From: an uncultured Nocardioides sp.
GTDB lineage: Bacteria > Actinomycetota > Actinomycetes > Propionibacteriales > Nocardioidaceae
Assembly (NCBI GenBank): GCA_964600305.1
Contig: CAZRKV010000001.1
Location: forward strand, 1-33,565
DNA length: 33,565 nucleotides
Reading direction: 5' to 3'
Notes under the pieces: model-generated
What the model was told of the DNA's origin: nothing
The model's database searches: none
Seen by the model: the letters and a program-made list of their open reading frames with translations, nothing else
Shown: positions 14,643 to 18,301 of the stretch, piece by piece
Numbering within the stretch: position 1 is the first letter of the stretch
How the letters are laid out: each line of letters opens with the position of its first letter
Position numbers and translations under genes: made by a program

Positions 14643-15296
14643 GTGATCGATCCCGAGCTCCTCACCCACGCCCGCGCCGCCAGGGGCTTCATGCCCGAGG
14701 ACGAGGGCCTGCTGCTGCACCGGTGCGCCCGTGAGCAGCTGCCGAGCGGGCCGGTGCTCGAGGTCGGCACCTACTGCGGGAAGTCGGCGGTCTACCTCGG
14801 TGCCGCCGCCCGGGAGGTCGGGGGCACGGTGTTCACCGTGGACCACCACCGGGGCAGCGAGGAGAACCAGGCGGGCTGGGAGCACCACGACCCCGAGGTG
14901 GTCGATCCCGAGCTGGGGCTGATGGACACCCTGCCGTTCTTCCGGCGGACCATCGCCCGCGCCGGCCTGGAGGAGCACGTGGTCGCCGTGGTGGGGGCCT
15001 CCACGACGGTCGCGGCGCACTGGCGTACCCCGTTGTCGATGGTGTTCATCGACGGGGGCCACGCCGAGGTGCACGCCCAGAACGACTACACCGGGTGGGC
15101 CCCCTGGGTCTCCTCCGGAGGGCTGCTGGTGATCCACGACGTGTTCCCCGACCCCGCGGACGGGGGCCAGGCGCCGTACCACGTCCACCAGCGGGCCCTG
15201 GGCAGCGGCGCCTTCACGGAGGTCGAGGCCCTCGGGTCGATGCGGGTGCTGCGGCGCACGTCAGGCGCGGCGGGGACCGCCGACCCGGTCGGCTGA
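14643..15296 (+). CDS. meT1: Class I SAM-dependent methyltransferase, MMP 1-O-methyltransferase (MeT1)-like
   Basis: [54 protein letters not shown] all match my recollection of Mycolicibacterium hassiacum MeT1; TAGGCT -10 box 6 nt before GTG. Confidence 0.8.
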
Positions 15297-16361
15297 CCGG
15301 CAGCCGCACTCCAGGCCGAACTCCTCCAGCGGCGGAAGGGTCGCGCCGCGGTAGATGTCGTGGCCGGGCGTGGCCCGCGCGAGCTGGTCGGCGGCCAGGA
15401 CCACCGCAGCGGCGGTGTACGTCGTCTGCTCGTCGGGCCAGTTCACCTCGTCGCCGAAGACCCATCCGGTCCAGTAGCTGCCGTCCTCGTGGCGCAGGTG
15501 CTGCATCTCCGCGAACAGCTCGCGGGCGCGGGTGTGCTCCCCGACGGCGTCCAGCGCCATCACCAGCTCGCAGGTCTCCGCTCCGGTGACCCAGGGGTTG
15601 GTGTCCACGCAGCGGATCCCCAGCCCGGGGACCACGAAGTCGTCCCAGCGCGACGAGATGAGCTCGCGTGCCGCCGCGCCCTGCACGGCCCCGCCGAGCA
15701 CCGGGTAGTACCAGTCCATCGAGTACGTGGACTTGTCCAGGAACTCGGTCCGGTGGTCCCGCAGCGCGTGGCCGAGGCGGCCCCCGGCCAGCTCCCACTC
15801 CGGCTGCGGCTGGTCCACCAGGTCGGCGAGGGCGACCCCGGCGCGCAGGGCGTGGTGGATGCTCGAGGACCCGGCGAGCAGGGCCTCCCGGTGCACCCGA
15901 CCGGCGCGTCCGTCCCGCCACTCCTGGGCCCAGGCGATCCCACCGAACGGCAGCTGCAGGTCCACGACGTAGTCCAGCGCCCGGCGCACGGCCGGCCAGC
16001 ACTCACGGACGAAGGCCTCGTCGCGGCGCACCAGCCAGTGGTGCCAGAGCCCCACGGCCAGGTAGGCGCACATGTTGGTCTCGCCGCTGGGGTCCTCGAC
16101 CCGCCCGCGGACCAGCTTCATCGGCCAGGACCCGTCGGCCCGCTGCGTGGCCACGCACCACCGGTACGCCCGCTCGGCCGCGTCGACCTCGCCCCCCACG
16201 AGGAGGGCCATGGCGGCCTCGACGTGGTTCCAGACGTCCACGTGCTGGTCCGAGGCCCACGGGATCGCCCCGTCCGGCTCCTGCACCGCCGCGATGGACG
16301 CGGCCGTGCGGCGTACCCGGGCAGCGTCCATCACCGGCTCCACCGCGGGCACCTCAGGCAC
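15261..16361 (-). CDS. (alpha/alpha)6-barrel protein usually annotated 'prenyltransferase'; probable MMP hydrolase (MmpH-like alpha-mannosidase)
   Basis: Repeated QxxDGxW-type barrel motifs ([23 protein letters not shown]), [24 protein letters not shown]; position within a GT4-MTase-MeT1 cassette. Confidence 0.65.
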
Positions 16362-17073
16362 GGTCGGGCTTCCGGAGGTAGCAGACCAGGCTCTTGCCGA
16401 CCAGCGGGTCGAGGATGCGGCCGGCCAGGCGCAGGGCCCGGGGCTGTTCCATGATCTCCCACACCAGCAACCGGTGGTAGGCCCGCGCGAGGGGGTGGTC
16501 GTCGTTGTCGACCCCGACGGCGCACTTGATCCACCAGTACGGCGCGTGCAGCCCGTGCGTGTGGTCAGTGCCCTCGACCTCCAGGCCGGCCGAGGTGAGC
16601 TTGCTGGTCAGCTCCTTGTCGGTGTAGATCCGGATGTGGCCGCCCGGGGTGTCGTGGTAGGCCTCGGACAGCTTCCAGCAGATCACCTCCGGCAGCCACC
16701 GCGGGACCGACACCGCGAGCGTGCCCCCCGGGCGGAGCACCCGGGCCAGCTCCTGGATCGCCTGGATGTCGGCCGGGATGTGCTCGAGCACCTCGGCCGC
16801 GACGATCCGGTCGAACTCCCCGTCCGCGAACGGCAGGGCCAGGGCATCGCCCTGCTTGATGTCGGCCTCTGCGCCCGCCGGCACCTCCCCGCGCTCCTTC
16901 ATCGCCCCGAAGACCTCGAGCACCCCGGCGAGCTCGTCGGCGTCCTGGTCGAACGCGACCACGTCGGCGCCGCGCCGGTACATCTCGTAGGCGTGTCGAC
17001 CGGCCCCGCACCCCATGTCGAGCACCCGCTCGCCGGGGCGCAGCCCGAACCGGTCGAAGTCAACGGTCAGCAT
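16354..17073 (-). CDS. Class I SAM-dependent methyltransferase (type 11), candidate mannose 3-O-methyltransferase
   Basis: VLDMGCGAGRH, GDALALPFADGEFD, EVLEHI, RVLRPGG; overlaps both neighbouring genes. Confidence 0.8.
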   Translation of the reverse strand: MLTVDFDRFGLRPGERVLDMGCGAGRHAYEMYRRGADVVAFDQDADELAGVLEVFGAMKERGEVPAGAEADIKQGDALALPFADGEFDRIVAAEVLEHIPADIQAIQELARVLRPGGTLAVSVPRWLPEVICWKLSEAYHDTPGGHIRIYTDKELTSKLTSAGLEVEGTDHTHGLHAPYWWIKCAVGVDNDDHPLARAYHRLLVWEIMEQPRALRLAGRILDPLVGKSLVCYLRKPDRA

Positions 17074-18301
17074 GCTTCTTCTCCTCGATGGCTTCGGTGT
17101 AGGCCGCAGCCGTCGCCTCGGCGACGGCCCGCCAGCTGAAGTGCTCCAGCACCCGTTCGCGGCCCGCCCGGCCCATCCGGTCCCTCCGGTCCGGGTCGTC
17201 CAGGAGGGCGGCCAGGGCCTGCTCGAGCTCGCCCACGTCTCCGGGGGTGACCAGGTCCGCGCACCGGCCGTCCGGGCCGACCACCTCGGGGATGGCTCCG
17301 GCGCGGGAGACGACCAGGGGGGTGGCGCAGGCCATCAGCTCCGCGGTCGGGAGGGAGAAGCCCTCGTACAGGGACGGCACGCAGGCCACCTCCGCCGACC
17401 CCATCACGTCGACCAGCTCGGCGTCGCTGATGCCGTGCACGAAGGAGACGTGGTCCTGGACGCCGAGGCTGTCCACGAGCTGCTCGGTGCGTCCCCCCGG
17501 CACCGGTCGGCTCACGAGGACGAGGGAGACGTCGCGCTCGGTGCGGAGCTTGGCGAAGGCCTCCAGCAGGGTGGCGATGCCCTTCATCGGCGCGTCGGCG
17601 CTGGCCATCGCCACGATGCGTCCCGGCACCCGGGGCCGCGCCGGAGGCCGGAACCCCTCGTCGACCCCGAGGGGGATCACCCGGATCCGGTCGCGGTCGA
17701 CGCGGAAGTCGGTCGCGATGTCACGGGCGCTCGACTCCGAGACGGTGATGACCCGGCGCAGCTGGCGGGCCACCCGGCCCTGCATCCGCAGGAAACCGTA
17801 CCAACGGCGCAGGGTCAGCTTCTTGCGCCAGGAGGTCGTGGCGGCCAGGTCGATGCGCCGGTCGAAGGTGATGGGGTGGTGGATGCTGGTGACCAGCGGG
17901 AACCCCCGACGCTCCAGCTCGAGGATCCCGTCCCCCAGGACCTGGTTGTCGTGGATGACGTCGAAGTCCGCGAGGCGGTCGCGCAGCTCGCGCAGCACCC
18001 GCCGGCTGAAGGTGCGCGGCTCGGGGAACCCGGCCGTGCACATCGTGAGGAACTCCTCCACGTCCACCAGGTCGCGGAACTCCGAGGGCCGGGGGACCCG
18101 GAACGGATCCGGCTCGCGGTACAGGTCCAGGCCCGGCACCGCGGTGAGGCCGACCCCCTCGTCCAGCTCGGGGTAGGGCTGGCCGGAGAACACCTCCACC
18201 TCGTGGCCCAGGGCCGCCAGCTCCCGGCTCAGGTGTCGGACGTAGACCCCCTGTCCACCACAGTGCGGCTTGCTGCGATAGGACAGCAGTGCCACGCGCA
18301 T
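17060..18301 (-). CDS. GT4 glycosyltransferase, ManT-like alpha-1,4-mannosyltransferase candidate
   Basis: MRVALLSYRSKPHCGGQGVY, HDNQ, KG, SLYEGFSLPTAE (E-X7-E), FSW; GGGAGGG RBS before ATG 18301. Confidence 0.85.
   Translation of the reverse strand: MRVALLSYRSKPHCGGQGVYVRHLSRELAALGHEVEVFSGQPYPELDEGVGLTAVPGLDLYREPDPFRVPRPSEFRDLVDVEEFLTMCTAGFPEPRTFSRRVLRELRDRLADFDVIHDNQVLGDGILELERRGFPLVTSIHHPITFDRRIDLAATTSWRKKLTLRRWYGFLRMQGRVARQLRRVITVSESSARDIATDFRVDRDRIRVIPLGVDEGFRPPARPRVPGRIVAMASADAPMKGIATLLEAFAKLRTERDVSLVLVSRPVPGGRTEQLVDSLGVQDHVSFVHGISDAELVDVMGSAEVACVPSLYEGFSLPTAELMACATPLVVSRAGAIPEVVGPDGRCADLVTPGDVGELEQALAALLDDPDRRDRMGRAGRERVLEHFSWRAVAEATAAAYTEAIEEKKHADR

Follow-up and report, generated by a model that had tools for sequence, protein, structure and literature searches.

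Why should genes for a methylated mannan lie between the sterol catabolism repressor gene kstR and its known target fadE34? This question is raised by a stretch of 33,565 nucleotides from an uncultured Nocardioides sp. (GenBank assembly GCA_964600305.1, contig CAZRKV010000001.1; the whole stretch is hereafter called the window), in which four open reading frames within positions 14643-18301 form two convergent arms, meT1 on the plus strand facing mmpH, pmeT3 and manT on the minus strand, exactly as a preliminary description of this DNA had it. Judged by the sequences of their products, the four are counterparts of the mycobacterial genes for 3-O-methylmannose polysaccharide (MMP), and what is new about this known gene set is its regulatory setting. 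In the literature consulted, MMP is proposed to be an acyl-CoA-sequestering agent, and an MMP-negative mutant only grows more slowly at 15 °C. Our account, to which we give a probability of about 0.55, is that the cassette specifies a core, acyl-CoA-buffering polymer and that the manT-pmeT3-mmpH operon is under partial KstR repression; in this account, we infer polymer production, KstR binding at manT, the promoter positions and the buffering role.

The meT1 product matched PDB 6g7d, which we take to be MeT1 of M. hassiacum, with an E-value of 1.4e-84 (next match, 4e-4); the mmpH product matched PDB 7qsj, entitled MmpH, with 1.5e-130, and the manT product matched PDB 7qsg with 8.5e-160 (next match, 1e-21). 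We regard 7qsg as ManT, since the residues named in PMC9883506 agree with its numbering. Compared with their counterparts in six mycobacterium-like loci with the same gene order, all four proteins show 55-64% identity (57-62% for meT1, and 55-59% for pmeT3 when compared with the gene between manT and mmpH), and each MMP gene is single-copy in this genome at this similarity; lineage labels such as mycobacterium-like and Streptomyces-like were assigned by inference from family scores and gene order. The five ManT residues checked, each either needed for activity or a conserved residue of the site (Gly15, His142, Lys240, Glu313 and Glu321), are all kept, as are the equivalents of MmpH Asp47, Glu262 and Glu265; gene orientation, too, is that of the six loci. 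The same four genes make up the MMP clusters MHAS_04402-04405 of M. hassiacum and MSMEG_6481-6484 of M. smegmatis (PMC9883506), which bears out the likeness to the mycobacterial locus asserted in the preliminary description; unlike in those clusters, the cassette here is placed between fadE34 and kstR and has a KstR box at manT. It is very probable that these genes make a 3-O-methylmannose polymer.

One of the four enzymes deviates at two positions. In the window's MmpH, Asp50 and Trp315 of the M. hassiacum enzyme are replaced by Asn and Tyr, respectively (M. hassiacum numbering; listed as residues 45 and 315). Asn occupies the former position in all 145 Nocardioides-type loci (duplicates included) whose motif was read, as it does in 39 of 64 loci from other actinobacteria, and we therefore regard it as an old lineage trait and not as a lesion in this genome; Asp is kept in 8/8 mycobacterium-family and 11/11 Streptomyces-like loci. 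The Trp315 position is mostly Tyr or Phe in Nocardioides-type loci. According to the structure paper, Glu262 is the catalytic base and the acid is either Asp47 or Asp50, a choice left undecided there; if Nocardioides MmpH is active, its natural Asn points to Asp47 as the catalytic acid.

Within the genus, the MMP cassette belongs to the core gene set and is kept even where sterol ring cleavage is missing. Of 250 genus genomes, 247 encode ManT, non-degraders included (the tally includes the unpublished genome G558), and MmpH was found in 35 of 36 same-genus genomes, 19 of which have KstR. Beyond the genus, MmpH was present in 0/24 genomes from other families of the order and in 68/400 phylum genomes (including the unpublished G061, G078, G108, G128, G276 and G430), and ManT in 163/400 class genomes. 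An HsaC orthologue was found in nine of nine kstR-bearing genus genomes tested versus none of 12 that lack kstR, and those 12 have the cassette. HsaC was also not found in three genomes (G540, G565 and G652), although these keep kstR and the manT box; therefore, we argue that the link is independent of steroid ring breakdown. In the same three genomes (loci L261, L263 and L266), kstR has no fadE34 beside it and the remnant KstR regulon includes manT.

The repressor itself is readily recognized: the window's KstR matched PDB KstR with an E-value of 2e-60, scored 267 bits on NCBIfam NF033703 (cut-off, 280) and grouped with mycobacterial KstR in a tree with 100/100 support. The window shares the motif TnnAACnnGTTnnA, the repressor clade and the fadE34 target with the KstR regulon of M. 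smegmatis and M. tuberculosis, in which fadE34 and kstR, unlike in the window, are directly divergent (PMC1995591). Allowing one mismatch, the motif occurs 10 times in the window against 0.85 expected, and none of 100 shuffles reached 10.

The box to the right of manT is common to the manT and kstR promoters, and genomes in which kstR lies apart from manT were assembled to tell kstR autoregulation from manT control. Two of these separated genomes came from the 36-genome genus sample and 19 from 65 weaker-scoring ManT matches among the 247; 54 of these 65 have KstR, adjacent to manT in 35 and apart from it in 19. Across the sets checked genome by genome, all 30 kstR-adjacent genomes and all 21 with kstR elsewhere have a box no more than 200 bp from manT that deviates from the motif at one position at most (in the 21, 15 boxes are exact and six have one mismatch); none of the 17 genomes lacking kstR has one, and the chance background is 0.011 per 210 bp. 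In five separated genomes (G652, G583, G540, G565 and G594), the gene upstream of manT is co-directional, so that only manT can use the box there; in a large separated subclade, a small divergent DUF1707-type gene could share it. Where the kstR locus of separated genomes was retrieved, fadE34 and kstR adjoin with two boxes of their own in seven of 10 cases. A FastTree tree of ManT, pMeT3 and MmpH resolves the separated genomes into five sublineages interleaved with three box-free, kstR-lacking lineages. Moreover, a -10-like hexamer lies 0-1 nt before the box at manT in 28/30 kstR-adjacent genomes, which is the geometry found at the known target fadE34 (24/29). The predicted kstR -10 would place the right box over the kstR -35 region, and the box probably also overlaps the kstR promoter on the opposite strand. 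From these comparisons, an effect of KstR on manT transcription appears reasonably likely.

The idea that the cassette was dropped between two ancestral fadE34-kstR boxes was set aside, because separated genomes have the manT box in addition to the fadE34-kstR boxes and because kstR-lacking genomes often keep the cassette at the same chromosomal place. In two genomes (G001 and G007; loci L062 and L064), the cassette lies approximately 3-5 kb from a phage-integrase-family gene, and in relatives of this subclade with long contigs it lies approximately 90-115 kb from kstR, which suggests a rearrangement in that subclade.

The left box tells a different story. The survey covered 107 Nocardioides-type loci with meT1 and room upstream, and the box was present at meT1 in 48 of 49 loci where fadE34 adjoins; when an insertion separates fadE34 from meT1, the box stays with fadE34 (4/4) and not with meT1 (0/4). 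It was found at meT1 in only one of 11 loci with kstR and no fadE34, a locus that ends at a contig edge 385 bp upstream, in one of 43 with neither gene, and in one of 18 separated genomes, where it also lies ahead of a divergent yrbE gene. Of 29 loci, 24 have a -10-like hexamer directly next to the left box towards fadE34, and none has one towards meT1. By this pattern the left box is assignable to fadE34, and KstR probably does not control meT1; in the window, 65 bp separate the box from the apparently leaderless meT1 start downstream of it, and in relatives a shorter gap may bring the box incidentally over the meT1 -35 region. The preliminary description had placed a KstR box ahead of each arm and wired the entire cassette into the KstR regulon. 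By position both boxes are indeed present, but the left one follows fadE34, and the proposed wiring survives for the manT-pmeT3-mmpH arm, through comparative genomics, but not for meT1.

A second operator is frequently found at the same promoter. The exact palindrome TAC-N6-GTA occurs within 260 bp of manT in 17/43 loci without adjacent kstR and 5/63 with it (duplicates removed), and likewise in 10/11 Streptomyces-like, 12/40 other actinobacterial (including G430) and none of seven mycobacterium-family loci, with at most 0.5 matches expected per group. It is exact in 12/12 of a further kstR-adjacent set, mostly directly before the -10 and the KstR box, and at the manT promoter in 8/17 kstR-lacking, 15/21 kstR-elsewhere and 15/30 kstR-adjacent genomes of the genome-checked sets. 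Loci L031-L320 show the motif to be kept ahead of manT across the phylum, with or without KstR. The same motif has been reported upstream of fas and a desaturase (PMC3388012), and the oligonucleotide bound by FasR (Rv3208), which senses long-chain acyl-CoA, contains it (PMC7382501); the manT palindrome is of the same form, and the available portions of these two papers do not report it at MMP genes. Both this genome and its relatives encode FasR-like proteins whose DNA-binding region is near-identical; the one encoded here scores 252 bits (cut-off, 330). Genome-wide, the exact motif is not enriched (40 sites versus 45 for a control pattern); genomic sites precede a 3-hydroxyacyl-CoA dehydrogenase gene and an AMP-binding enzyme gene. 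As a lead, the motif's FasR form suggests a second, likely acyl-CoA-sensing input at manT, and its reader could be another TetR protein than the FasR-like one.

A comparable pairing of manT with a KstR-type regulator is found in more distant loci. In 11/11 Streptomyces-like genomes, a KstR-like TetR gene lies head to head with manT with an exact box between them, which in the three loci measured is 55 bp ahead of the manT start; the regulator is 44-48% identical, has the same recognition helix and forms a separate clade. No HsaC orthologue was found in these 11 genomes, and other boxes there lie ahead of genes for a KstD (scoring above the family cut-off), acyl-CoA dehydrogenases and cholesterol-oxidase-like proteins. 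In loci L231-L239, the small KstR-type regulon also has a hydratase-like gene, and the regulator is likely of the SCO2319 type. In further Streptomyces-like loci (L159-L165 and L202-L205), meT1 either falls outside the retrieved stretch or is separated from mmpH by at least 4 kb; the genes between encode an F420/luciferase-like oxidoreductase and other products, and may include tailoring genes for the acetylated MMP. In S. coelicolor itself, SCO2317-2319 comprise a methyltransferase, a glycosyltransferase and a KstR-like regulator (PMC4895711); SCO2319 had been noted as a KstR homologue without conserved synteny (PMC1995591), and its neighbours SCO2317-2318 occupy the pmeT3-manT position of Streptomyces-like loci. 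In another family, f85, the box is at manT in 7/8 genomes with a KstR-like gene and 0/8 without; these boxes are exact, lie 97-201 bp before manT and face a divergent GDP-mannose 4,6-dehydratase gene. Two GDP-mannose users thus stand behind one operator in f85 loci L283, L285, L287-L289, L291 and L293, amid P450 and ferredoxin genes. In the remaining families sampled, the box is at manT in 0/12 genomes with a KstR-like gene, and the regulator lies 0.8-0.9 kb away in two.

In the seven mycobacterium-family loci, no KstR box was found at manT or meT1. Further upstream, 3.4-5.5 kb from meT1, 4/6 mycobacterium-like loci (L151-L154) have an exact KstR box, which probably serves an MSMEG_6475-type operon, and a TetR gene of another family is divergent from meT1 in at least three mycobacterium-like loci.

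Published expression data bear on the account. In N. simplex VKM Ac-2033D, cluster B (KR76_12270-12295) has the layout of the window: four genes annotated as glycosyltransferase, methyltransferase, 'prenyltransferase' and 'secreted protein' lie on the expected strands between kstR (KR76_12270) and fadE34 (KR76_12295), and the authors predicted KstR sites in both flanking gaps (PMC7807495). The available portion of their text does not recognize MMP genes, and we base orthology on position and annotation. On phytosterol, fadE34 was 3.7-fold up, and KR76_12275-12290, measured in two replicates, were not called induced at the thresholds used (3-fold and q 0.01); nor were kstR and the hsd4A operon KR76_12245-12265, which has a strong box (PMC7807495), and these data therefore exclude strong but not modest induction of the MMP genes. 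Two genes of that operon were called induced in a study by the same group (PMC7593942), which counted 16 and 19 induced cluster B genes in its work with cholesterol and lithocholate, numbers compatible with the inclusion or exclusion of the MMP genes. In M. smegmatis without kstR, fadE34 was derepressed 93-fold, and MSMEG_6481, 6483 and 6484 changed by -2.3, 1.0 and 1.4-fold (P >= 0.29), MSMEG_6482 being missing from the table (PMC1995591). Contigs from four sequencing runs covered 0.05-0.27 of our stretch, with pieces of at most approximately 240 bases on all four genes, and are uninformative on strand and level; as DNA may be present, they bear neither on expression nor on habitat.

How the arrangement would work can be outlined as follows. 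The four genes likely make a 3-O-methylmannose polymer that would bind long-chain acyl-CoAs, and the KstR box at manT likely lets the repressor partly hold down the manT-pmeT3-mmpH operon. The inducer of KstR is a CoA thioester; sterol or lipid breakdown would release KstR, and polymer output would rise, probably as a modest boost over a basal level and not as an on/off switch. The cassette would work without sterol genes, KstR being an added input on a promoter that often carries TAC-N6-GTA, and the polymerizing, methylating and recycling genes would thereby take input from acyl-CoA-sensing TetR proteins, KstR among them; we regard this as the most economical reading of the findings as a whole. 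Long-chain fatty acids are bound by MMP in vitro (PMC4555173), and the polymer itself probably does not carry sterols.

Several observations weigh against this account. The missing induction of the MMP genes on phytosterol in N. simplex is one, as is the fact that the MMP genes of M. smegmatis are not derepressed on loss of kstR. The right-gap site in N. simplex scored weakly (q 0.0295; PMC7807495), the window's own right box has one mismatch, and its TAC-N6-GTA site is degenerate. All 21 separated genomes fall within one larger clade, 15 of them in one tight subclade, and they may therefore represent few independent events. No manT box was found in 13 of 20 class-sample genomes with a KstR-like gene, and in six of the seven f85 genomes the box is approximately 200 bp from manT and nearer the GDP-mannose 4,6-dehydratase gene. 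In S. coelicolor, the glycosyltransferase and methyltransferase genes were well expressed in the growth series studied, and the start of SCO2319 has been mapped 62 bp away from the start of SCO2318 (PMC4895711); if the spacing is equal to that of the Streptomyces-like loci, the SCO2319 start would fall inside the box, which favours autoregulation there but is compatible with an effect on manT as well. As for the enzymes, an MmpH Asp50 Ala variant loses most activity, and Nocardioides MmpH has Asn there; additionally, isolation of MMP from Nocardioides is not reported in the open-access literature searched.

Part of this evidence fits a rival explanation, namely that a constitutive housekeeping cassette lies between fadE34 and kstR by ancestry, with the left box belonging to fadE34 and the right box serving kstR autoregulation without real effect on manT. 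Both the uncalled MMP genes in N. simplex and the predicted position of the S. coelicolor regulator's start within the box agree with it, as do the mycobacterial fadE34-kstR promoters, which have a box with no MMP genes between, and the persistence of the cassette, box-free, in 17 kstR-lacking genomes. Nevertheless, we consider this explanation somewhat doubtful, since the box stays at manT in all 21 genomes after kstR has moved, five of them without a divergent neighbour, and is at manT in none where kstR is absent, and since its geometry at manT is that of fadE34. 

The preliminary description had suggested a more specific function, a sterol-inducible MMP that directly carries or buffers sterols or steroid-acyl-CoAs in the manner of an intracellular cyclodextrin. 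Such a polymer could also act back on KstR through sequestration of the inducer. The KstR link of manT, the adjoining of the cassette to KstR-boxed genes in several orders, the Streptomyces-like boxes before KstD and cholesterol-oxidase-like genes, and the genus-wide MmpH changes, which could reflect an altered product, all speak for such a carrier. Against these stand the presence of ManT in nearly the whole genus, including genomes with neither KstR nor HsaC, so that a sterol-specific cassette is not supported; the absence of HsaC from the 12 kstR-lacking cassette bearers and the 11 Streptomyces-like genomes; the retention of kstR and box in the three genomes where HsaC was not found; and the lack of strong phytosterol induction in N. 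simplex. Additionally, the dimensions of the MMP helix suit a linear alkyl chain and not a steroid ring system. No evidence for a cyclodextrin-like carrier was found, and we consider it improbable. We hold equally small hopes for a broader version, in which MMP would be an ancient KstR arm across Nocardioides, Streptomyces and other actinomycetes, with glycan output going up when KstR is released and the glycan holding the acyl tail of steroid-acyl-CoAs, including the inducer of KstR, and thus serving sterol side-chain breakdown both as a sugar-based chaperone and as a feedback loop. The alternative also raised at the outset, that the glycosyltransferase and methyltransferases act on steroid intermediates and not on a mannan, has the sterol cluster position as the sole point in its favour; it fits poorly with the 55-64% identity to mycobacterium-like MMP products, the kept donor-binding residues of ManT and the occurrence of the cassette in genomes without sterol ring-cleavage genes, and it is very improbable indeed.

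The features on which these arguments draw are listed in Table 1. On the minus strand, the end of one gene runs into the start of the next throughout the three genes, and 36 bp are common to the two arms. A consensus promoter and terminator scan of 14400-18600 gave no matches, and the -10 assignments are based on conservation; TAGnnT hexamers similar to the predicted meT1 -10 precede the meT1 start in relatives (by eye). GC content is flat across the cassette, with a third-position GC content (GC3) of 0.94-0.96 in the four genes, and a scan of the window for tRNA genes found none; the flat GC content and lack of tRNA genes therefore give no sign of a recent insertion.

Table 1. Features of the MMP cassette and its flanks (window coordinates)
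Feature	Position	Strand	Basis
fadE34/chsE3 acyl-CoA dehydrogenase	12389..14536	-	Pfam acyl-CoA dehydrogenase domains; position of N. simplex KR76_12295
left KstR box TAGAACGTGTTTCA, exact	14565..14578	.	motif scan; assigned to fadE34
predicted fadE34 -10 TAGGGT, 1 nt before left box	14580..14585	-	sequence; inferred
predicted -10 TAGGCT of leaderless meT1 transcript, 6 nt before GTG	14631..14636	+	inferred
meT1, MMP 1-O-methyltransferase orthologue	14643..15296	+	PDB 6g7d match
mmpH, MMP alpha-(1,4)-endomannosidase orthologue, (alpha/alpha)6 barrel	15261..16361	-	PDB 7qsj match
pmeT3, putative 3-O-methyltransferase	16354..17073	-	Pfam Methyltransf_11; position between manT and mmpH
manT, glycosyltransferase family 4 (GT4) alpha-(1,4)-mannosyltransferase orthologue	17060..18301	-	PDB 7qsg match
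right KstR box TGGAACGTGTTCCT, 1 mismatch; common to manT and kstR promoters	18367..18380	.	motif scan
predicted -10 CATAAT of manT-pmeT3-mmpH, directly 5' of right box	18381..18386	-	inferred
degenerate TAC-N6-GTA palindrome remnant, 2-3 mismatches; exact in many relatives	18387..18401	.	
predicted kstR -10 TAGCCT	18400..18405	+	conserved columns in 63 loci; inferred
kstR, TetR-family sterol catabolism repressor	18499..19110	+	PDB, NCBIfam, tree

The cassette is set in a sterol catabolic region with hsaCDA, kstD, mce genes, fadE34 and kstR. Tandem KstR boxes lie at 4136 and 4160 (window 4136-4173), between hsaA and hsaF. Divergent genes for a wax ester/DGAT synthase and a LipQ-like esterase adjoin fadE34 (window 9629-12392); most relatives have a KstR box between these two genes, and none with at most one mismatch is present there in the window. 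In kstR-lacking genomes, the LipQ-like esterase gene is often still next to meT1.

No regulator of MMP genes was found in the open-access literature searched, which omits most subscription papers, including the original MeT1 paper. SCO2319 is not named in the available main text of a Streptomyces DAP-seq preprint (10.64898/2026.06.06.730586), a source that may bear on novelty.

Both the conserved KstR operator and the second one, of FasR form, suggest that the MMP genes take input from acyl-CoA-sensing repressors, and they name conditions, sterols and long-chain fatty acids, in which an MMP mutant should show a defect. The pairing with manT also suggests a target for the uncharacterized S. coelicolor regulator SCO2319. 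For Nocardioides, a genus used in steroid biotechnology, the MMP gene set is a core trait.

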